Shown here in pieces: positions 28,309 to 41,015 of a stretch of DNA of 64,000 bases. Within the stretch, counting starts at the first letter, position 1; each line of letters opens with the position of its first letter. The stretch comes from Candidatus Bathyarchaeota archaeon (GTDB lineage Archaea > Thermoproteota > Bathyarchaeia > Bathyarchaeales > Bathycorpusculaceae). Location of the stretch: contig CAVYXJ010000009.1 of assembly GCA_963772455.1 (NCBI GenBank), forward strand, positions 64,001-128,000, read 5' to 3'. The notes beneath the pieces were generated by a model that did no database searches, was not told the DNA's origin, and was given only the letters and a program-made list of their open reading frames with translations. The translations under genes were made by a program, and so were the position numbers.

Positions 28309-30267
28309 TTACTTTTCTGGGGCAACTGCGTTATTTTCGATTTTCCTCTCTAATGCTCTATTCAATTCAGCAATAGCATCTCTTAACTGAATAGCAAGTT
28401 CAAAATCCAATTTCTCAGCTGCTTCATGCATTTTCGCGTCTAATTCAATAATTTGGCGTTTTATGTCTGACTTTGGTAGGTGTTTGGTACCTTTGATTAT
28501 ACTTTCTTTTTGTGATACACCCTTCACTATTGTTTTTGGCGTGATATTGTGGAGTTTGTTGAAGCGTTTTTGGAAACTTCGTCTGTAAAGAGTAATCTCT
28601 ACAGCTCGTTTAATTGAGCGAGTTTCCACATCGGCATAAAGAAATACTTTGCCGTGATCGTTTCTTGATGCCCGACCTATTGTTTGAATTAAACTGCGCT
28701 CATCCCGCAGAAACCCTTCTTTATCAGCGTCCAAAATGAATATTGTTGAAACTTCAGGAATGTCTAAGCCTTCTCTAAGCAGGTTGATGCCAACGAGAAT
28801 GTCGAATTCTCGAATTCGCAGTTGTCGAATTAATTCTATCCGATCCAAGCTATCTATTTCTGAATGCATGTATCTGACGCGGAAACCTTCCTTGCATAAG
28901 TATTCGGCTAGATCTTCTGCCATGCGTTTTGTTAAAGTTGTAACTAAAACGCGGTCACCACGTTCAATGGTTTTTTTGGCTTCCGTCATCAAATGCTGCA
29001 TCTGACCCTCAATTGGATGAATCTCAACCTCAGGGTCTAAAAGTCCTGTGGGTCTCGTTATTAATTCAACTGGCAAACCACTTTTTTCAAGTTCATATTC
29101 GGCAGGGGTCGCTGAGACAAATAGGACTTTGCCCATTTTCTTTTCGAACTCTTCAAACTTTAGCGGTCTGTTATCCAATGCACTGGGCAACCTGAAACCG
29201 AAATCCACAAGATTCTTTTTTCTCGCATAATCGCCGTTGTACATTGCACGTGACTGAGGAATAGTCTGGTGGCTCTCATCTATAATCAACAAGTAGTCTT
29301 TGGGAAAATAATCCATCAACGTAAACGGAGGCTCCCCGGGTTTGCGCCCATCGAAGTGGCGGCTGTAGTTTTCCATTCCCGCACAAAACCCCACTTCCTT
29401 AATCATTTCTAAATCATAGTTTGTTCGCTGCTTGAGCCTGTGCGCTTCCAATGGGGGCAAATTGGGCAAGGTTGCTTCAAGTTCTTTTTTAATAAGTTCT
29501 AGTGCAAGTGAATGTTTCTCTTCAGGCACCACATATTGACGTGCAGGATAAAGTGTAAACTTGTCAAGCGCAGTCTTCACATCACCGCTTACCAAATTAA
29601 CTTCTTTGATTTTTTTGATTGTATTTGCTTCAAGTTCAATACGCAAAATTTCATTCTCATAGGATGGCACAACATCTACCACGTCTCCTCTTACGCGAAA
29701 TCTTCCCGGCTCAAGAACCATATCGTTTCGTTCATACTGCATGTCCACTAGTTCATGGATAAGTTGCGTTCTTGACATTTGCTTGCCAACCTCAAGAACT
29801 GCCGCCATAGTTCTGAAATCGTCTGGGTTACCTAAACTGTAAATGCAGCTTATACTGGCCACTATTATAGTGTCGTTTCGACTTACGACGCTTGAAACAG
29901 CGTGCATACGCATCTTTTCAATCTGCTCGTTAACAGAAGAGTCTTTTTCAATATACATATCTTGAGCTGGCAGGTATGATTCAGGCTGATAAAAATCGTA
30001 AAAACTAATGAAGTATTCCACTCGGTTATGGGGAAAGAGTTCTTTTAACTCCGCATACAACTGTGCCGCTAAGGTTTTATTATGTGCGATGATAAGGGCA
30101 GGTTTTTGTTGTTTGTTGATTACGTTAGCCATTACAAATGTTTTGCCACTACCTGTTATGCCAAGAAGAGTTTGTTTGGGTCTAATTGAGAAGTTTTTCA
30201 CTAGCTGCTCCACTGCAGATTGTTGCCCAGGCGAAATTTGGAATGGAGCTACAAGTTCAAACTGCAT
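28309..30267 (-). CDS. uvrB: Excinuclease ABC subunit B
   Basis: GITGSGKT, HNKTLAAQL, YQPESY, DESH, NLLREGLD, QTIGRASR and a C-terminal UVR domain. Confidence 0.97.
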   Translation of the reverse strand: MQFELVAPFQISPGQQSAVEQLVKNFSIRPKQTLLGITGSGKTFVMANVINKQQKPALIIAHNKTLAAQLYAELKELFPHNRVEYFISFYDFYQPESYLPAQDMYIEKDSSVNEQIEKMRMHAVSSVVSRNDTIIVASISCIYSLGNPDDFRTMAAVLEVGKQMSRTQLIHELVDMQYERNDMVLEPGRFRVRGDVVDVVPSYENEILRIELEANTIKKIKEVNLVSGDVKTALDKFTLYPARQYVVPEEKHSLALELIKKELEATLPNLPPLEAHRLKQRTNYDLEMIKEVGFCAGMENYSRHFDGRKPGEPPFTLMDYFPKDYLLIIDESHQTIPQSRAMYNGDYARKKNLVDFGFRLPSALDNRPLKFEEFEKKMGKVLFVSATPAEYELEKSGLPVELITRPTGLLDPEVEIHPIEGQMQHLMTEAKKTIERGDRVLVTTLTKRMAEDLAEYLCKEGFRVRYMHSEIDSLDRIELIRQLRIREFDILVGINLLREGLDIPEVSTIFILDADKEGFLRDERSLIQTIGRASRNDHGKVFLYADVETRSIKRAVEITLYRRSFQKRFNKLHNITPKTIVKGVSQKESIIKGTKHLPKSDIKRQIIELDAKMHEAAEKLDFELAIQLRDAIAELNRALERKIENNAVAPEK

Positions 30268-30477
30268 TTTACTTTCCCACAACGACAAGAATTGACCGAA
30301 CAAATGAATTAATTAAGTTTTTCTAAAAAGTAAGTTAGTTTGAGTTAATCTCTGTGTTTGAAGAAAAAAATATTTTTGTTTATTAGCAATTCTTTTTCTA
30401 AATTTGAAAAGCTAATGAAAGCGAATAATTAAAAATAAATACTATCATCCAATAAAGAAAAAATCTTTAAAGAAATC

Positions 30478-30771
30478 TTATTCTACGGTTAATTTTCCAA
30501 ATTTACCAACGTTAAGCTGAATTTCACTCTTAAAACTCGTAACATAACCGTTTTCGATTTTAATATTATCGCCTACGTTGATTTGATCAATCTGCTCGTT
30601 CCAAAGCGTCAACTTTACACTGCCAGATTCGTCAGCAACTACAGCGTCAACTATTCGATAAGTTTCATCTTTAAAGCGTGATTTAACTTCTCTAGGATCG
30701 CCTTTATCGACGACTTTGGCTTCAACGCTAACTCGTTTCATGCCGTCTTGCAAATCTTTAATCGAAACCAT
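30478..30771 (-). CDS. ssb: Single-stranded DNA-binding protein, single OB fold (crenarchaeal-type)
   Basis: MVSIKDL...VADESGSVKLTLW...IENGYV..FKSEIQLNVGKFG. Confidence 0.88.
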   Translation of the reverse strand: MVSIKDLQDGMKRVSVEAKVVDKGDPREVKSRFKDETYRIVDAVVADESGSVKLTLWNEQIDQINVGDNIKIENGYVTSFKSEIQLNVGKFGKLTVE

Positions 30772-30901
30772 TGTATTTTCCTCTCCTAAACTGTTCACTG
30801 ACAGTCGGTTTTCAATTGCAAAGGTGGGCTGCAATCATATAAATCTTGCTAACTAAAGAAGATTAGAAAAAATTGTGGCAAACGCCTTTTACAGCGTTGA
30901 C

Positions 30902-32184
30902 TTAGACTGCTCCAACTAAGAAAACCAGGAGCAAAACAACTGCGGCTAATGAAACAGCAGATAAAACAATTCTTTTTACCATGGAAAACTCTGGTTTGAG
31001 TTCTCCTACGATTATGGCACCCACTGCTCCCAGCCATACGTAAGATACTATGAACATTCCTGAAACTATGGTTCTGAAAGTCAATGTTGCTGCATCAATG
31101 TTGTTGAAGATTGTTGTTGACATTGCGGGAAGTGTTTTTAGTGCTTCAACTGGGTAATAAAGCGCTGCGTATGGATCAAAACGTACGCCTAACGATAGAT
31201 CAAACGGATAATATACAGGGGGCAAAGCAAACGTTGCTACTAAGTTAACTATTGAACGAATAACCATAATAACCAATGCAAAGCCAAAAGCTACAAAAAG
31301 AGGTTTCCAAAGCACCTGGCTTTTCAGAAGTCTACAAATCAAGTAAATGAAGCCCGTTAATATGAACCAAGTGAAAATAAACTGTAACGAAAACAACTGT
31401 AGAAATTGTAGAAGGATACCGGTGCTATTGTATTGGACCGGTGTGAGATACTGTCCATGAAAGAATAAGGCTCCAACATGTAAGTTAACATTTGTATTAG
31501 ATGGATAAGTGAAATCCAGCTTTAAGGATGTAATGTTATTCCAAGTGGGATTACCATTAGCTTTCCAACCAGCAGAGTTGGGTCCAAGAGTAAGTGAAAG
31601 GTTGTTCCATTGACCAAGTATTGAACTGTTTGATAATTGAGGCGTTAAGTCAAATTGGTATGAGTCAGTGTCTCCAAGTGAGTATAAGGTTATTGTTGCG
31701 TTTTGAGGAGCATAACTTCGGGCTGAAGCTGCTTCAAGGTGATTGAGAGATTCTGGAAGCCACTTGTGCTGCAGTCAACATTGAATAGGTTACCTAAAGC
31801 CGCTGTTACACTATTAGTATTTGTGGCATTAATTTGCAGACTGCTGTTACCAAAGAGGCTATAGTAAGCATTCGAATCTGTAGGTGGAAGTCCAAAACCT
31901 GCAACGTAAATACTGTAATTAAAATAATCATCAAAATTGTTAGTTAACGCAACATTTTGACTGCTTCTCCAGACTGAAGCATTGGTAAAAGTTGGCAACT
32001 GATCAATAGTTGGAGTTGTTTGCTCGGTATAAGTTTTAGAAAACTGTGAATACTCATAACCTACTTGTAAACCAATAAAAAGAATTAGAACAATCAGTGC
32101 CCCAATGTACTTTGGATTAGCCAAAATGCTCTTGAACGCTTTTTGCGGTGCATAAATAACTTTCAGGATGTCATCAATGAACAA
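30902..32184 (-). CDS. Yip1-domain membrane protein with a large extracellular insert; frameshifted
   Basis: N-terminal KVIYAPQKAFKSI plus TM is Yip1-like. An Asn-rich middle part continues in another frame (31400-31690), followed by C-terminal TMs (30902-31396). Confidence 0.7.
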
Positions 32185-32345: not shown

Positions 32346-33854
32346 TTACATTCCTGTCTTGAGTCGCCGGTAAGTCGTGTAGTCCACGTATTCCACGAAT
32401 GGATTTTCAGCTTGAAATTTAACGCTGATTTTTTGTCGTTTACGTTTGTCGAGCAATTGACTTGTTGTTCTAAGCATGTAAGCGTCGCTGCCTGCACCTG
32501 AACCATAGCTTGCAACTAAAATGCGTTCATCCGGCTTAGCAACATCCAACACCGCAGCTAAACCGACAAGCGAGGCTCCCGAATACGTATTTCCAAACTT
32601 TGTTATTTGAATCGCAGGCAAATACTGATCTTCTCTAAAACCGAGTTCTTTGGCTATTCGAACTGGAAACTGTGGATTAGGTTGATGAGGAACGAAATAG
32701 TTTAGGTCAGTTGCTTTATAATTTAATTTCTCCATGAGTTTAGTGGCAGATTTTCGAACATGTTTAAAATATGCTGGGTCGCCAGTGAATCTTCCACCAT
32801 GCATTGGATACTGTTCGCCATCTCTACGCCAAAAATCAGGAGTGTCAGAAGTGCAAGAATACCAACCTTCAACTTCGGCTATTACATCGTTTTTTCCAAA
32901 AATAAAAGAGGCACCGCCGAAACCAACATATGTATCTAATTCCCCGCCCGCACAACCTCTAGGGGCAGCTTGAGAATTATCTGCGCCGATAACCATTGCG
33001 TATTTTATACAAGACCTTGGATAGCTAACCAACGCTGAAGCATCTTTGAACATGCTTGTGCCCGCTTTGCAAGCAAACTCAGTATCTACTGCATCAACGC
33101 TTTGAACGTCGCCGTCTTCTTCACCGAGCTTAAGAACTTGAGCTACCTTTGATGCAATAGGTTTAACGGCATAAGGGTTTGATTCTGAGCCAACATAGAC
33201 TTTTCCAATCCAAGTACTATCGAGACCTGAATGGATAAGGGCAAGCTTTCCAGCTTCAACCGAAGCAGTAACCGCGTCTTCATCTATGAATGGAACAGCA
33301 CGTTCCAAGCCGTCTTCTTTTATGCGGAAACGAGAAGTATAAGCGCCATAACCTACGATACCAGGCAATTCATATTCTTTGCTGGGTTGTACCACTTTGT
33401 ATTCTTGGTGTGGATAATATTCATCTGCTAAAGTGAAAGCTAAAGAAATTGTTGGAACAACCTCGCTTTTACCCACTGAATAACGTCTTCTGAAGCGAGG
33501 AATTACGTCCCTGCCTTCAAGGTTAGTTAAATCCACATCGTCACCTGCACAAATCAATTGGTCAGTTAATCTTGCGGGAACACGGATTTTTCCATCATGA
33601 AAGGAAACAATTCCGTAAACGAAACTTGAAAGTTTCATGAACTTGTTAGTTGGTTCATTGATATAGGTACATAATTCTAGTTTGCCCTTATCATAGAATA
33701 AGTCAACGCTATCCATTTTGCCATAGCTTTTTCTGCCGCAGTTACTGCAATAATCGCGTATTTCAAAATATTCTTTGCCGCAGCATTGACATCGGCTCGC
33801 TTTTAAGCGGTCGCCTAAGTAAGAAACACGTCTTTCTATTGGCTCACTACTCAT
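32346..33854 (-). CDS. DUF35 (zinc-ribbon/OB-fold) fused N-terminally to an archaeal-type HMG-CoA synthase
   Basis: N-terminal CxxC..CxxC and OB fold; then DED, VGSESNPYAVKP, EFACKAG, DFWRR, GRFTG.PAYF, HQPN, GNTYSG and SYGSGAGSD. Confidence 0.92.
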   Translation of the reverse strand: MSSEPIERRVSYLGDRLKASRCQCCGKEYFEIRDYCSNCGRKSYGKMDSVDLFYDKGKLELCTYINEPTNKFMKLSSFVYGIVSFHDGKIRVPARLTDQLICAGDDVDLTNLEGRDVIPRFRRRYSVGKSEVVPTISLAFTLADEYYPHQEYKVVQPSKEYELPGIVGYGAYTSRFRIKEDGLERAVPFIDEDAVTASVEAGKLALIHSGLDSTWIGKVYVGSESNPYAVKPIASKVAQVLKLGEEDGDVQSVDAVDTEFACKAGTSMFKDASALVSYPRSCIKYAMVIGADNSQAAPRGCAGGELDTYVGFGGASFIFGKNDVIAEVEGWYSCTSDTPDFWRRDGEQYPMHGGRFTGDPAYFKHVRKSATKLMEKLNYKATDLNYFVPHQPNPQFPVRIAKELGFREDQYLPAIQITKFGNTYSGASLVGLAAVLDVAKPDERILVASYGSGAGSDAYMLRTTSQLLDKRKRQKISVKFQAENPFVEYVDYTTYRRLKTGM

Positions 33855-35043
33855 TTTTGCATTCTCCTAATATGGTAACGTAGGCTTTTGTTCCAAAGCC
33901 CTCAAACTCTAATACGCAACCATTCTTTGGCATATCTTTACCAACGTGAACTTGTCTTTCGCCAGCTTCCCCACGAAGTTGACGATAAATCTCAAAGATC
34001 TGCGCCCCTCCAGTTGCACCCAGCGGGTTACCGTTTGCTTTTAAACCACCATCTGTATTAACATAAAGTGGTTTACCACCTATATCATAACAGTTTTGGC
34101 AGCCATGTATGCTTTTCCAGGCTGTTCCAGGCTGACAAAAACCCAAGTCTTCAAGAGAAACCATTTCCATCATAGTGGATTGGTCATAAACTTCGATAAT
34201 CTCTAAATTGGAAGGCTTGATTTTGGATGTTTCGGAAGCTTTCTTCATAGCAAGCTCAGCAGAAAGGAAATGGGATAAATCCGCTCTTGCTGGATAATTA
34301 AGATAGTCTGTTGCTGCACCAATGGCCAAAACGTTGACTGGTCGATCAGTCTTTTTCTTAGCCACTGATTCGCTTGTAAGAATCAGAGCTGATGCGCCAT
34401 CAGAAATTGGAGCAAAATCGTAGAGTCCTAAAGATTTCTGCGCTACTTTTCTTGCGCTTAAAACTTGATCAATGCTTATTTTTCTTTGATATTGGGCGTA
34501 TTTGTTTTTGGTTGCGTTAGCATGGTTCTTTACAGTAATCTCTGCTAAAGCCATGTTAAGTTGATCTAAGTTTTCACCTGTTATGTTATGTTTTTTTATG
34601 TAAGCACGAAGCATTAGTTCATGGTTTGATTCAGGTGTCCCACCTGCATAATAACTCCAAGGATCATCGAGGAGCATGAGATCGTCTCGGATTTTGTCCC
34701 AGCGATCTGTCATCTTCTCAATTCCGCCGACTAGAACAGTGTTGTAAGCTCCTGCTTGAATAGCATGGCAAGCTGTTAATAATGCGGCACTAAAAGAACG
34801 TGTGACCTCCATGGGCACATGAAGCTCAGTTAATTCTGAGAGAAAACCTTCTTCAAGACCTAATTTGTTTGTGATTGGAAGAAAGCAATCGGACATATAA
34901 CATGCTTCTAGGTCTTTTCGTTCTATGCTGCATTCATTTGAAGCGGCAAGCCAAGCTTCTTCAATTAGTTTTTCTGGTTCTTTGCCGTAGTGCTCTCCAA
35001 ACTTAGTTCGGCCAACAGCAACAATGGCTGGGCAATTTTGCAT
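33847..35043 (-). CDS. Thiolase-fold (SCP2/archaeal acetyl-CoA acetyltransferase family) protein lacking canonical catalytic residues
   Basis: GRTKFGE, GGIEKM, KNH.NA..N..AQ, PISDGA, EDLGF, VN.DGGLKA and LGATG..Q..E...QLRGEAGERQV motifs. Confidence 0.9.
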   Translation of the reverse strand: MQNCPAIVAVGRTKFGEHYGKEPEKLIEEAWLAASNECSIERKDLEACYMSDCFLPITNKLGLEEGFLSELTELHVPMEVTRSFSAALLTACHAIQAGAYNTVLVGGIEKMTDRWDKIRDDLMLLDDPWSYYAGGTPESNHELMLRAYIKKHNITGENLDQLNMALAEITVKNHANATKNKYAQYQRKISIDQVLSARKVAQKSLGLYDFAPISDGASALILTSESVAKKKTDRPVNVLAIGAATDYLNYPARADLSHFLSAELAMKKASETSKIKPSNLEIIEVYDQSTMMEMVSLEDLGFCQPGTAWKSIHGCQNCYDIGGKPLYVNTDGGLKANGNPLGATGGAQIFEIYRQLRGEAGERQVHVGKDMPKNGCVLEFEGFGTKAYVTILGECKNE

Positions 35044-35323
35044 AATATACCCCCTTTTTGGATAGCCATAAAGATTTTCAAAAAAGACTATTAAGGGTTT
35101 GCCAAATTCCTCACAAAAATTTTGATTGTTATATATAGCAACCAATCAGAAAGATGCTTTCAAAAAATTAAGGATAGAAAGAAAAATTATAAGAAGTCTG
35201 GAGAGAATTATCCGAATTGTTACTTTAGTGAATAAATAAAATAATTCATTAAAAATCTGCACTTCGATAATTAAATTGCGAACGCTGTCGCAAAGATAAT
35301 CAAAAGCGACTTAAAAATTAGCT

Positions 35324-36730
35324 TTAAAAATGTCGAAGCACTTCATTATTTATTTCATTTTTTATTAACTGAGATTTTATTGCTTCAATGAGTTTCTGAA
35401 GTTTTTGGCTCAACTCAACGGGGTAAACTGGAGCGTTTGTTAATGCCTTAAATTCTGCTGGAAGTTTAGAAATGTCTTCTGAAGCCTTGCTGCGGATTTC
35501 ATTAATAGTTGGAAGATTATAGATGATCTTGCCTTTGTCCATGACCTTAAGGAGTAACGGCTCACCCTTAACTTTTTCATCTGATAATGCGATGAGGTCT
35601 TTTTCAAAACTGCCCTCTTTATTCTTAAATCGATACACCTGCTTTCTTCCAGGCAAAGTAATTTTGTCTTTGCTTAACTTCATTTTGGGTGAAAAGCTGC
35701 CATCAGATCTCATTGTTTCACACAGTTTGTAGATAACGTCAAGGTAAGGTCTATCAGCTGAAGTGCCCATCTTAGTTCCAACACCAAACGCATCAATCAT
35801 GACGTTGTCATTGAGGAGTTGGGTGATTTTAAATTCGTCCAAGTCGCCACTTGCAAAAATCTTAATTTCCTTTAAATTATTGGCATCTAAGATTTTCCTA
35901 ATTTCTTGACTGTTTTTTGCTAAGTCACCGCTGTCCAGTCGAATTCCTCCAAGAGTATACCCTTTTGATTCGAGTTCTTTGGCGACTATTACGGCTTTTT
36001 CCGCTCCTGCCATAACATCGTATGTGTCTATTAGAAGGGTTGATTTGTTTGGGAATGTTTTGACGAAAGCTCTGAAGGCATCGATTTCCTTTTGGTAAGA
36101 CATAACAAATGAGTGAGCCATCGTGCCATAAACTGGAATACCATATGCCATTGCCGCTAGAACATTACTGGTTCCTTGACACCCAGCGATGTAACTTGAG
36201 CGAGCTACTTTCATCCCAGCATCAATACCCTGTTCACGTCTTAAACCAAATTCGATTATTGATTTGCCTTTAGCCGAATGGACTACTCGTGAAGCTTTAG
36301 TCGCTATCATAGTTTGAAGGTTAATTGTGTTTAAAAGAAACGTCTCTACAAGCTGCGCTTCAATAATAGGAGCTGATACACGAATTAATGGTTCATTGGG
36401 AAAAACCACAGTACCTTCTGGAACAGCCCATACTTCACCATTGAAATGGAAAGCATTGAGATAATCTAGGAAGTCATCGTTGAATCCCTGTTCTTTTAGG
36501 TAAATCAAATGATCTTTTGTAAAACTAATGCTTTGCAGATATTGTAAAGCTTCTTCTAACCCCGCGAATAGAAAGTATGAGCGATTTTCTGGCAACCGCC
36601 TAATGAAAAGCTCAAATGTGGCATTTTCAAAGTTCTTGTTGTCAAAGTAGCTTGCACACATGGTTAACTCATAATAATCAGTAAATAAGCTCATGTTTTG
36701 CAGTTTTAGGAAATCCAGAAAAGAGTTCAT
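35324..36730 (-). CDS. pncB: Nicotinate phosphoribosyltransferase
   Basis: TDYYELTM, EFGLRR, GTSNV, GTMAHS, LIDTYD, RLDSGD and FGVGT motifs. Confidence 0.95.
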   Translation of the reverse strand: MNSFLDFLKLQNMSLFTDYYELTMCASYFDNKNFENATFELFIRRLPENRSYFLFAGLEEALQYLQSISFTKDHLIYLKEQGFNDDFLDYLNAFHFNGEVWAVPEGTVVFPNEPLIRVSAPIIEAQLVETFLLNTINLQTMIATKASRVVHSAKGKSIIEFGLRREQGIDAGMKVARSSYIAGCQGTSNVLAAMAYGIPVYGTMAHSFVMSYQKEIDAFRAFVKTFPNKSTLLIDTYDVMAGAEKAVIVAKELESKGYTLGGIRLDSGDLAKNSQEIRKILDANNLKEIKIFASGDLDEFKITQLLNDNVMIDAFGVGTKMGTSADRPYLDVIYKLCETMRSDGSFSPKMKLSKDKITLPGRKQVYRFKNKEGSFEKDLIALSDEKVKGEPLLLKVMDKGKIIYNLPTINEIRSKASEDISKLPAEFKALTNAPVYPVELSQKLQKLIEAIKSQLIKNEINNEVLRHF

Positions 36731-36957: not shown

Positions 36958-38010
36958 GTGAAGTTAATGACTGATGACTCCGATGTTGAAGAGCAGGAAA
37001 ATAGCGAAGAAACTATATTGGAAACAAACAGGAAAAAATACCAATTCATTGAAGATCTGCCAGGAGTTGGACCTGCAACTGCTCAAAAACTCAAAGAGCT
37101 CGGTTATCACACTGTAGAATCTTTAGCGATGGCAACTAGCCGTGAACTCGAGCCGGTTGGAGTAAGCGAGAAAAAAGCCTTCCAAGTCATTGAAGCCGCA
37201 CGCTCATCAATTGGCATTTCATTTATTCGAGCTGATGAACTCTTCAAAATGCGCCAAACCGTCTTGCGGGTAACTACCGGCAGTAAAGCCTTAGACAAAA
37301 TCGTTGACGGCGGTTTAGAAACCCAAACTATAACAGAATTTTACGGTGAATATGGCAGCGGTAAAAGCCAAATGTGCCATCAATTATGCATCAATGTTCA
37401 ATTGCCTCCGGAAAAAGGTGGACTTAATGGAGGAGCATTGTATGTAGATACCGAGAATACTTTCAGATTGGAACGTATTGTTCAGATGGCAAAGTTTGCG
37501 GGTTTAGATCCGGCAGAAGCTGTTAAAAAAATTATTTACGCTGAAGCTTATACTTCAGATCACCAAATGTTCTTGCTTGAAAACGCTGATGAAATAATCA
37601 AAGCAAACAACATCAAACTAATCATAATAGACTCATTAACTGCCCATTTTAGAAGCGAATATATAGGAAGAGAAATGCTTGCATCAAGACAACAAAGACT
37701 CAATAAACATATGCACAAACTCATCGCTTTAGCAAGAGCATTCAATGCAGTTGCAGTCGTAACCAACCAGGTGATGGCAAAACCAGATCAATTCTTCGGT
37801 GACGCCATTCATCCTATAGGTGGAAACATTGTTGGCCACACAAGCAACACGCGAATCTACTTAAGACGTGCATCTCATGGACCAATTCGAATTGCAAGAC
37901 TTGTTTCAAGTCCATATTTACCAGAAGGCGAGGAAATCCTTAAAGTAACCGAAAACGGAATAGAGGATGTCTCTGAAGAAGAGAAAGCAACCAAACCTCG
38001 TGGACGCTAA
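36958..38010 (+). CDS. radA: DNA repair and recombination protein RadA
   Basis: HhH N-domain (LPGVGP), FxxA motif FIRA, GEYGSGKS Walker A, IIDS and GGNIVGH. Confidence 0.97.
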   Translation: MKLMTDDSDVEEQENSEETILETNRKKYQFIEDLPGVGPATAQKLKELGYHTVESLAMATSRELEPVGVSEKKAFQVIEAARSSIGISFIRADELFKMRQTVLRVTTGSKALDKIVDGGLETQTITEFYGEYGSGKSQMCHQLCINVQLPPEKGGLNGGALYVDTENTFRLERIVQMAKFAGLDPAEAVKKIIYAEAYTSDHQMFLLENADEIIKANNIKLIIIDSLTAHFRSEYIGREMLASRQQRLNKHMHKLIALARAFNAVAVVTNQVMAKPDQFFGDAIHPIGGNIVGHTSNTRIYLRRASHGPIRIARLVSSPYLPEGEEILKVTENGIEDVSEEEKATKPRGR

Positions 38011-38900: not shown

Positions 38901-41015
38901 GTGAAACGGTTATTTTATAGCCAACTCTGCAATAGAGTCCTACCATTGGTGGATGTCTTGCGCAAAAAAGATTTCTCAAGCTTTGACATTGCGGCAGCAA
39001 TAAAAGAACTAAAAACCACTTTGGACCAATCCAGAGTGAACAACATCTACCAACTCGACGAGAAAACAATAATTTTCAAACTGCATAAAACAGACATGCC
39101 TCCTATTCGATTGGTTATGGAAGCAGGCAGGAGATTGCACGTTACCAGTTATGCAGAAGAAAACCCTTCGGAACCCCCAACGTTCTGTATGACATTAAGA
39201 AAATATTTGCGCAACGCTTGGGTGGCGGGAATTGAACAACACGAATTTGAAAGAATCGTAACAGTAAGTTTTCGCACCAAAACTGGCGTGTTAAAGCTTG
39301 TTGTGGAGCTTTTCGGCGAAGGCAACCTCATACTAACAAATGAACAAAACGTAATTATTCATGCTTTAGCTTTCAAAAAAATGCGTGACCGCGACATATT
39401 GCATAATGTAGTTTTGGAGCTTCCGCCTTCAAGCGGCAAAAACCCGTTCAAAGTAACTCAAACTGAATTGGAAGAAGCCCTCAAAAACGCAGGCGAAACT
39501 GAAGTTGTTAGGTCTATAGCGCGTTTCTTGGGTGTGGGGGGAGTTTATGCAGAAGAGATCCTTCTGCGAGCTAACATCGATAAAACCAAGCATTGCAGCG
39601 TCCTCACTATGGATGATGTTAAAGTAATTTATGAAACACTGCAAACCTTGTTGGCTGCGGTTTCAGGTGGGAATTTGGAGGCAGCAATCGTTTTAGGTGA
39701 AGATGGAGAATTTTTTGATGTTGTACCTATCAAACTCAAACGTTATGAAGGGTTCAAAACACAGGTTTACCAATCTTTTAACCAGGCTTTAGACGAGTTT
39801 TACCTGCGGGTAACGGTTGCTGAAAGAGCTGTTAACCATCTTGAAGTGGATAAGTTAAAGAAAGAAGCTGAAAGGTTAAGGCGCATGGTTGCTGAACAGG
39901 AAAAATCCATTCAGGAAGATGAAGCAAAATCAGAACGAGACAAACTCATCGGCGACACAATCTACGCCCACTTCAACGAACTCCAAACATTCCAAGAACA
40001 ACTCCTAAAAGCCAACCAGCAAGGACATGAATGGGAAACAATCATCACAACTGTTATGGCTGCGAAGAAAACAGGCAAACCGCCAGCTGCTTATGTTGAA
40101 TCGTTTGATGGAAAAAACCTTGCATTAAACCTTGGCGTGGACAGTTTCCACTTTAGTTTTAACCTTAGAGATTCGCTCTTCGAAAATGCTAACAGGTACT
40201 ATGAACATGGCAAACGCGCAAAAGAGAAATCTCAAGGCGCCCTCTTTGCGCTTCAGGATTCTAAGAGGAAACTCGCTAAAATCGAGCGTGAATTGGCTCA
40301 AGCGGAAGAACTTAAAAGCCTCAAGCCTGCTGAAATCATGGAAGCCCTATCGAAGCGCAAGGTAGAAATGGAGAATAGGGAATGGTACGAGAAATTCCGT
40401 TGGTTCATTACTTCGGATGGTTTTTTGGTGGTTGCGGGAAAAGACACAGTTAGCAATGAAGTGCTTGTCAAAAAGTATGCTACGATGGAAGACGCGGTTT
40501 TCCACGCTGAAATTACGGGGTCACCTTTCGTAGTCGTTAAAGCGGAGGGCAAACCGATAAGTGAGCAAGCGCTGCGTGAAGCTGGAGATTTTGCTGCGTC
40601 TTATTCGCGGGCTTGGCGAGAAAATCTTGGGACAGCAGATGTTTACTGGGTAAAAGTTGACCAGCTCAGCAAAAGTGGCCCGTCTGGGGAATCGGTTCCT
40701 CATGGCGCTTTCTTTGTGGTGGGCAAGCGCAATTGGATGCGAAACGTGCCGCTCCGAGTCGCAGTAGGCATAATTGTTGGGGAAGAAACAAGTTTTGTGG
40801 GAGGACCTGTGGAAGCGGTTAAAGCGAAAACAAAAGCTTACGTGGTTATCCTTCCAGGAGATACGATGGGGAAAGATTTGCTTAAACAGATTCTGAAATC
40901 ACTCATGCTCAAGCTGTCAAAGGAGCAACGTGAGAAAGCTGGCAAAACTTCAATTGAACAAATCCGAGAGTTCGTTCCTTACACGAAAGGCGCGATAAAT
41001 CTTAAAGCAGCCTGA
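38901..41015 (+). CDS. rqcH: Ribosome quality-control protein RqcH/Rqc2 (NEMF, NFACT family)
   Basis: NFACT-N (FCMTLRKYL, ERIV, ELFGEGN, RDR), HhH, coiled coil and NFACT-R (WYEKFRWF, GKD...NE, HA). Confidence 0.93.
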   Translation: MKRLFYSQLCNRVLPLVDVLRKKDFSSFDIAAAIKELKTTLDQSRVNNIYQLDEKTIIFKLHKTDMPPIRLVMEAGRRLHVTSYAEENPSEPPTFCMTLRKYLRNAWVAGIEQHEFERIVTVSFRTKTGVLKLVVELFGEGNLILTNEQNVIIHALAFKKMRDRDILHNVVLELPPSSGKNPFKVTQTELEEALKNAGETEVVRSIARFLGVGGVYAEEILLRANIDKTKHCSVLTMDDVKVIYETLQTLLAAVSGGNLEAAIVLGEDGEFFDVVPIKLKRYEGFKTQVYQSFNQALDEFYLRVTVAERAVNHLEVDKLKKEAERLRRMVAEQEKSIQEDEAKSERDKLIGDTIYAHFNELQTFQEQLLKANQQGHEWETIITTVMAAKKTGKPPAAYVESFDGKNLALNLGVDSFHFSFNLRDSLFENANRYYEHGKRAKEKSQGALFALQDSKRKLAKIERELAQAEELKSLKPAEIMEALSKRKVEMENREWYEKFRWFITSDGFLVVAGKDTVSNEVLVKKYATMEDAVFHAEITGSPFVVVKAEGKPISEQALREAGDFAASYSRAWRENLGTADVYWVKVDQLSKSGPSGESVPHGAFFVVGKRNWMRNVPLRVAVGIIVGEETSFVGGPVEAVKAKTKAYVVILPGDTMGKDLLKQILKSLMLKLSKEQREKAGKTSIEQIREFVPYTKGAINLKAA

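Follow-up and report, generated by a model that had tools for sequence, protein, structure and literature searches.

All archaea need 3-hydroxy-3-methylglutaryl coenzyme A (HMG-CoA) for the isoprenoids of their membrane lipids, and on the textbook archaeal route a channelling complex of thiolase, HMG-CoA synthase (HMGCS or HMGS) and a DUF35 protein pulls the unfavourable thiolase reaction forward. Bathyarchaeia are abundant archaea of soil and sediment. HMGS alone is inactive and the thiolase, acetyl-CoA C-acetyltransferase (ACAT), alone is insoluble (PMC12960953, citing Vogeli 2018); both share a common coenzyme A (CoA) site at their interface (PMC12329534). In an archaeal thiolase, the exchange H284A in the HDxF motif abolished HMG-CoA formation, and PfACAT H294Y nearly abolished thiolysis (PMC12960953). 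Here we report a gene pair from a 64,000-nucleotide stretch (the window) of a Candidatus Bathyarchaeota archaeon genome (assembly GCA_963772455.1, contig CAVYXJ010000009.1, positions 64,001 to 128,000), in which a thiolase-fold protein, named ThlX, has lost its catalytic residues and probably serves an adjoining DUF35-HMGCS fusion as a non-catalytic partner.

ThlX (398 aa) is encoded at 33847..35043 on the minus strand and was identified by Pfam domains, PDB matches, alignments and an AlphaFold2 model. Its open frame (33847..35145) reaches a TTG at 35145, and the ATG at 35043 yields 398 aa, the length of most ThlX homologs. The ThlX stop overlaps the start of the fusion by 8 nt (33847..33854, minus strand, ATGAGTAG). 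The fusion (32346..33854, minus strand, 502 aa) consists of a DUF35 part with a zinc ribbon and an oligonucleotide-binding (OB) fold (33450..33854, minus strand, approximately residues 1-135, the domain end being approximate) and an HMGCS domain (32346..33362, minus strand, approximately residues 165-502 plus the stop codon). A preliminary description of this DNA had named the 8-nt overlap, the intact reading frame of the thiolase-fold protein, the lost nucleophile loop and the motifs YDQS, GNPLGATG and EFEG, all of which were found again.

ThlX has the Pfam domains Thiolase_C_1 (8.1e-28) and Thiolase_N (1.3e-10) and falls under the curated NCBIfam thiolase cut-offs (NF004720, 283 vs 420 bits; NF053570, 230 vs 600 bits); for comparison, ThlC, a canonical thiolase of the same genome, scored 512 and 450 bits, respectively. 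The closest solved relative of ThlX is 6esq_A (E 4.6e-46), the thiolase chain of the thiolase/HMGCS complex of M. thermolithotrophicus. When the two are aligned, the loop 'veaacaSGS' lies opposite a gap in ThlX ('pmevtr......sfs'), HDCF is replaced by YDQS, and GHALGATG by GNPLGATG. A MAFFT alignment with the canonical thiolase of its own genome places the nucleophile loop of ThlX at 4 aa shorter and EFEG opposite NIGG. By these alignments, ThlX lacks the nucleophile Cys, both His and the acid/base Cys, i.e., all four catalytic positions of a thiolase.

The loss is not peculiar to one assembly, a case that the preliminary description had named as refuting its reading. ThlX was compared with its 120 best metagenomic homologs (79-94% identity, mostly 398-399 aa), and none of the 121 sequences has a Cys in the loop. 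Of the Tyr and Asn whose conservation the preliminary description had proposed to check, the Asn is conserved (GNP in 121/121), and Gln occupies the Cys position of HDCF in 120/121; the Tyr of YDQS is not constant (Y 99, N 18, C 4), nor is it in 34 genome orthologs (Y 25, N 8, C 1). A Cys repositioned into the active site was not found either. C92 is conserved in 33/34 orthologs, yet Cys also occurs there in 6/6 fully canonical type C thiolases (type C is described below), and its place is 10 residues inside the helix that follows the deletion; for both reasons it is regarded as ancestral and not as a recruited nucleophile. C376 is present in just 24/34 orthologs.

ThlX is under purifying selection. 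Where dS was computable, the ratio of nonsynonymous to synonymous substitution rates (dN/dS) is 0.05-0.08, compared with 0.03 for the fusion, with dS saturated. The frame is intact in the window, the 120 metagenome homologs and the 34 genome orthologs, and ThlX retains 65 of the 112 columns with a conservation of 90% or more among canonical relatives. For the AlphaFold2 model (predicted local distance difference test, pLDDT, 90.5; predicted template modelling score 0.92), 6esq_A is the best match in the PDB (template modelling score, TM, 0.91; root-mean-square deviation 2.2 Å).

The fusion, by comparison, has kept its functional residues. Residues 183-496 match the HMGCS chain 6esq_I (E 1.9e-76), and the HMGCS part exceeds the cut-off of NCBIfam NF003274 (370 vs 244 bits). 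Residues 17-100 match the DUF35 chain 6esq_E (E 7.6e-8); the DUF35 part has a zf-ChsH2 score slightly below the Pfam cut-off (21.7 vs 23.2 bits) and four zinc-ribbon Cys (C22, C25, C36, C39). In 26 aligned fusions the tetrad E224, C262, H390 and N422, of which the preliminary description had named the Glu/Cys/His triad as kept in the window, is invariant, and so are C22, C25 and C36. More widely, the tetrad is intact in 33/33 sequences from genomes with ThlX orthologs (58-100% identity; hereafter tier-1 genomes) and in all of the other module types described below (types A and C, 23/23; type B, 31/31). The tier-1 HMGCS domain keeps 87/104 conserved columns, the same count as type B, and is normal and not remodelled. 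The genome of the window has a single HMGCS, and HMG-CoA reductase is present.

Among 201 Bathyarchaeia genomes, ThlX orthologs occur in 49, comprising families f1-f6 of the order to which the window belongs and one further genome (G037); the next matches have at most 42% identity. The full-length fusion (63-100% identity) is present in the same 49 genomes and adjoins ThlX in the loci that were read. At three tier-1 loci (L120, L136, L143) the DUF35-HMGCS frame is broken into 2 or 3 ORFs in the assembly; a frameshift, an assembly error or a true split could each account for this. Three genomes of the same order (G014, G044, G050; family f2) have a ThlC ortholog (66-68% identity) and no ThlX ortholog, and a search with the fusion yielded no HMGCS in them at E <= 1e-30.

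The neighbourhoods of HMGCS were compared in 86 Bathyarchaeia genomes, a non-random set of 34 tier-1 loci and one or two genomes per genus elsewhere, and fell into four main types. Type A (13 genomes, one partial) consists of HMGCS, a canonical thiolase and DUF35. Type B (29 genomes; families f11, f14, f15, f16, f18 and f27) has the same gene order, but its thiolase carries S, Q, T, A or D where the Cys stood; after HD comes D, E, S, N, T, A, V or, in a single case, C, and GNP is frequent. In type C (8 genomes, two partial) a canonical thiolase is followed by a DUF35-HMGCS fusion, and in type D (the 34 tier-1 genomes and G004) the fusion follows a Cys-less thiolase with a 4-aa deletion, which in G004 retains both His. 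The module thiolase of one genome (G031; C/H/A/H) lies outside these types.

In a tree of 73 rows (IQ-TREE, 'quick' mode, support by the Shimodaira-Hasegawa-like approximate likelihood-ratio test, SH-aLRT, only), the fusion-linked thiolases form one clade (SH-aLRT 99), within which the tier-1 thiolases are a clade (SH-aLRT 100) on a long stem of 0.72-0.75 changes per site. Types B (SH-aLRT 99) and A (SH-aLRT 100) each form a clade of their own. On this topology ThlX descends from the clade of HMGCS-partner thiolases. Since type B and the tier-1 thiolases are separate Cys-less clades, the nucleophile was lost at least twice. Within the fusion clade, an approximately unbiased (AU) test (29 rows, LG+G4) did not reject a single clade of G004 and tier-1 (p-AU 0.168), and one and two losses are therefore indistinguishable there. 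Loss of the Cys is not tied to the fusion, because fused modules with canonical thiolases and unfused operons with Cys-less thiolases both exist; the two are separate events. The nearest relative outside the ThlX family, P0127 (a 50%-identity representative of 408 aa, 42% identity), is also Cys-less (GGGSASG, HDSY, GNPLGATG) and falls with the fusion-linked thiolases in the tree. Three genera of family f18 (g38, g60, g85) are mixed, with the fusion and a canonical thiolase in some species (G177, G108, G183; G060; G198) and the unfused operon with a Cys-less thiolase in others (G018, G112, G135, G162; G075; G174), which suggests replacement of whole modules.

The same loss was seen outside the Bathyarchaeia. 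A scan of species-representative genomes with an HMGCS alignment left 80 loci, of which 45 are non-Bathyarchaeia with a visible thiolase; the partner thiolase is Cys-less at 6 of these and keeps the Cys at 39. The six are labelled Thermoplasma sp. (L181; T/N/S/N at the four catalytic positions), Thermoplasmata metagenome-assembled genome (L172), Methanomassiliicoccus (L164), Methanophagales (L158; Asp in place of Cys) and, as bacterial HMGCS-thiolase pairs with Glu at the nucleophile position, Anaerolineae and Chloroflexota (L146, L178; both Chloroflexota). Three of the five loci labelled Thermoplasmatota thus lack the Cys (L164, L172, L181), and two keep it (L154, L162). A second, canonical thiolase/DUF35 pair is present in the Thermoplasma sp. 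and Methanophagales genomes, and a bacterial-type thiolase in the Thermoplasmata genome; in the Methanomassiliicoccus genome the Cys-less operon copy is the only Thiolase_C_1 match.

The preliminary description had raised the question of a second canonical thiolase and a second HMGCS in the genome of the window; the former is there, and the latter is not. On contig C5, the canonical thiolase ThlC (TEAACASSG, VHDCF, GHPVGATG, NIGGSG) is followed by a 132-aa DUF35 gene. ThlC orthologs (66-85% identity) occur in 40/49 tier-1 genomes, and a paralog of about 50% identity in 4 more (G067, G110, G181, G199), of which the copy read, that of G067, is canonical. No ThlC-type gene was found in 5/49; two of these (G114, G020) encode a thiolase of the bacterial type (TIGR01930, about 449 bits), so that 46/49 tier-1 genomes have another thiolase candidate. 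Ten second copies were read from genomes with Cys-less partners (six type B genomes, G067, G090 and two from G004), and 10/10 are canonical with an adjoining DUF35 gene. Conversely, Thiolase_C_1 matched nothing but the module thiolase above the cut-off in 5/5 genomes with a canonical partner (type A: G007, G013, G071; type C: G108, G006). As far as these gene inventories go, genomes with a dead partner usually hold a second canonical thiolase/DUF35 pair, and the checked genomes with an active partner mostly have no other thiolase. Carboxyltransferase (PF01039), looked for as a sign of a malonyl-CoA route to acetoacetyl-CoA, was found in 0/5 genomes.

One complete genome (G010, 100%) has as its sole thiolase match a canonical ThlC ortholog with its DUF35, and its HMGCS stands alone; an enzyme of the ThlC type may thus be able to supply an HMGCS that is not encoded next to it. 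This stand-alone HMGCS (L105:1076-2602, G010:C9; 508 aa, NF003274 337 bits, tetrad intact, no adjoining thiolase) is extended at its C-terminus by about 140 aa with a CxxC...CxxxC pattern and no Pfam match, which may be a DUF35-like domain; ORFs of 508-618 aa akin to it are listed in families f8, f17, f21 and f29.

We consider ThlX to be a non-catalytic structural subunit of HMGCS, its former catalysis outsourced, with a probability of about 0.6. ThlX would stem from the thiolase subunit of the archaeal complex with HMGCS and DUF35 and, though dead as an enzyme, be retained as structural partner of the cell's sole HMG-CoA synthase, which is here fused to DUF35. Acetoacetyl-CoA would be made by the separate canonical pair of ThlC and DUF35 and reach HMGCS as a free substrate. 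Three assumptions enter here, namely that binding of ThlX to the fusion has persisted, that HMGCS depends on ThlX and that the supply comes from ThlC. The properties of the described complex given above, i.e., the inactivity of HMGS alone, the insolubility of ACAT alone and the CoA site shared at their interface (PMC12960953, PMC12329534), would explain why a dead partner is kept. The scaffold pseudo-thiolase, with acetoacetyl-CoA from elsewhere, was one of two readings offered in the preliminary description, and it fits the loss of the four catalytic positions, the purifying selection, the second thiolase/DUF35 pair and the single HMGCS of the genome.

Several observations weigh against this reading. 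The residues that replace the old pocket (R82, S130, E138, N140, H141, E142, Q288, S289, N339, E379, E381) are invariant in 32-34/34 ThlX orthologs, and a mere plug need not have so fixed a pocket. Searches of three tier-1 draft genomes (G082, 95% complete, and G190, 93%, both of one genus; G026, 97%) found no other thiolase-superfamily gene and no PF01039, PF01144 (family-I CoA-transferase) or strong 3HCDH (3-hydroxyacyl-CoA dehydrogenase) match; all three keep the module and HMG-CoA reductase. Moreover, a partner is not universally required, because the HMGCS of G010 adjoins no thiolase. The fixed pocket is what would be expected if it had been remodelled for a new function, either Cys-independent acyl-CoA catalysis or control of HMGCS through a bound metal or regulatory ligand. 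The long tier-1 stem, as expected after a change of function, and the drift of the same positions in type B, the other Cys-less clade, point the same way. However, no known catalytic constellation is recognisable, and conservation at the changed positions (about 14/44 invariant) does not exceed that of the protein overall (146/398 columns, 37%). Greater invariance is also to be expected of the tier-1 clade because it has less depth than type B, and two Arg kept in canonical relatives (query positions 147 and 206) are lost, a hint of weaker CoA binding if, as we infer, both serve CoA. We therefore regard a new pocket function as unlikely, if worth keeping in mind.

A bolder form of the same idea, that the invariant polar pocket is a new active or metal site which lets the complex make HMG-CoA without any thiolase, would, if true, explain the three genomes in which the searches gave neither another thiolase-superfamily gene nor another route to acetoacetyl-CoA; we hold it to be quite improbable. 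The complex might also be self-sufficient by other means, forming HMG-CoA from acetyl-CoA alone on a non-thiolase route, e.g., with the Cys and Glu of HMGCS performing both condensations. The same three genomes speak for this, as does the Methanomassiliicoccus genome with its Cys-less operon thiolase as only match. The unremodelled HMGCS domain stands against it, together with the thiolase candidates of 46/49 tier-1 genomes, the three exceptions being incomplete drafts (93-97%), and we know of no precedent. On balance we find self-sufficiency decidedly improbable.

The second reading of the preliminary description, an Ltp2- or Sal-like retro-aldolase coupled to the aldol step of HMGCS, was suggested by the Cys-less SCP2-type fold with a DUF35 partner, the Tyr at the His position of HDCF in the window and a match to 6ok1_A (E 1.5e-11). 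Ltp2 and Sal have a Tyr base in the motif Y-D-[H/C]-[F/Y], and in addition Tyr344 (Ltp2) or Cys304 (Sal) (PMC12329534). In the ThlX family the first position varies between Y, N and C, and the third is Gln, as opposed to His in Ltp2 and the Cys needed in Sal (PMC12329534); the GH position, to which Tyr344 of Ltp2 would correspond by its spacing, holds Asn in place of Tyr. In its fold, ThlX is closer to 6esq_A than to Ltp2 (6ok1_C, TM 0.78) or Sal (9myr_A, TM 0.82), and a Pfam search of the window proteins found no hydratase or steroid genes near the module. We judge an aldolase very improbable. Decay into a pseudogene, or an artefact of assembly, would account for the loss of every catalytic residue, but is contradicted by the conservation and implausible in the extreme given the intact frames, the dN/dS of 0.05-0.08 and the model (pLDDT 90.5) reported above.

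The genes around the module are housekeeping genes unconnected with lipid synthesis. On the minus strand lie UvrB (28309-30303), an Ssb-like OB protein (30478-30834) and nicotinate phosphoribosyltransferase (NAPRTase; 35324-36730), and on the plus strand RadA (36958-38010) and an NFACT protein (38901-41015). Downstream of the module are two ORFs of 164 aa each (30902-31396 and, just downstream, 31690-32184; both minus strand), for which no Pfam match and no kinship to each other were found. Contigs from two RNA libraries reach no further than the 5' portion of ThlX (34630-35053), and one of these contigs is 240 nt long with 3 differences; they cross no gene junction and may stem from DNA carry-over, and are thus a weak hint that ThlX is expressed. 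The share of every sequencing run holding these sequences is small (at most 0.18), and for this reason no habitat was inferred.

A full-text literature search, supplementary files aside, found no description of a Cys-less thiolase as HMGCS partner in archaea. The claim of an undescribed variant in the preliminary description thus seems right; that of a new pathway does not hold. What appears to be new is that Cys loss in HMGCS-linked thiolases extends far beyond the fused form, to an unfused clade of Bathyarchaeia and to loci labelled Thermoplasma, Thermoplasmata, Methanomassiliicoccus and Methanophagales. A thiolase subunit that is dead yet conserved across a whole order of Bathyarchaeia, and dead in another large clade of this class, would mean that channelling is not universal. 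Automatic annotation of such proteins as acetyl-CoA C-acetyltransferase misleads metabolic reconstructions. The Cys-less partner at the Thermoplasma sp. locus suggests that experiments on this question may be feasible in a genus that is in culture, if the label is right.

The module of the window shares its three components and its gene neighbourhood with the 6ESQ-type archaeal complex (Vogeli 2018), whose thiolase chain is the closest to ThlX in both sequence and fold. Thiolase, HMGCS and DUF35 are encoded together, here in two overlapping genes, and the E-C-H-N tetrad of HMGCS and the zinc ribbon and OB fold of DUF35 are present; the nucleophile Cys, the His (and Cys) of HDxF and the His of GHx are absent from ThlX. 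The two also differ in that DUF35 is fused to the N-terminus of HMGCS in the window, and in gene order (thiolase and DUF35-HMGCS, vs HMGCS, thiolase and DUF35). Unlike in the 6ESQ type, channelling of acetoacetyl-CoA made in situ would be impossible with ThlX.

Cys-less members of the thiolase fold are common. The full C/H/C/H set is present in only 56/132 aligned sequences (130 representatives of at least 330 aa, from the 150 nearest 50%-identity representatives listed, plus ThlX and the canonical thiolase of its genome), and TbSLP (PDB 5AB4-7) is an SCP2-thiolase-like protein without the nucleophile Cys. The combination of the deletion, Y or N at the His position, Q and N occurs among the representatives aligned only in the ThlX family (the query, the P0124 cluster and fragments), and no other Cys-less cluster is known to us as an HMGCS partner. 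The steroid aldolase pairs Ltp2-ChsH2(DUF35) and Sal-Shy(DUF35) resemble the module in their DUF35-bound, SCP2-type thiolase fold without Cys nucleophile (PMC12329534). Their DUF35 is the partner of a MaoC-type hydratase in a steroid catabolic cluster, whereas that of the window is fused to HMGCS among NAPRTase, RadA, UvrB and the Ssb-like protein. The archaeal ketothiolase/DUF35 pair Saci_1121/1120 of archaeal fatty-acid synthase (bioRxiv 10.1101/2024.07.05.601840) has the two-gene architecture of ThlC and its DUF35 on C5; the comparison bears on the proposed supplier and not on ThlX, and ThlC could serve isoprenoid synthesis, fatty-acid synthesis or both.

The nearest published case is a mirror image, i.e., a dead HMGS with a live ACAT (PMC12960953). 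PhlABC, MucABC (SmaATase) and PfACAT/HMGS-DUF35 share the tripartite ancestry of the window module and likewise retain one dead subunit of two from the thiolase superfamily; in the PfACAT system, DUF35 is fused to the HMGS-like subunit, as it is here. A similar type exists within archaea, as two Bathyarchaeia have a second module of DUF35, an HMGCS-like gene and a canonical thiolase (L053, G081:C1:1390800-1395500; L103, G004:C2:147000-151500), and the HMGCS-like protein of L053 has T/T/H/D at the tetrad, which makes it a dead HMGS of the PfACAT/PhlABC kind. In PhlABC, MucABC and PfACAT the tetrad has disappeared from the HMGS and the Cys persists in the ACAT (PMC12960953), whereas in the window the ACAT is dead and the HMGS intact. 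The archaeal complex would have been reduced repeatedly to an HMGCS with a pseudo-enzyme at its side, the reverse of what was published in 2026 for bacterial PhlABC/MucABC. The published complexes with a dead HMGS have left primary metabolism (PMC12960953), whereas the fusion of the window is the only HMGCS of its cell.

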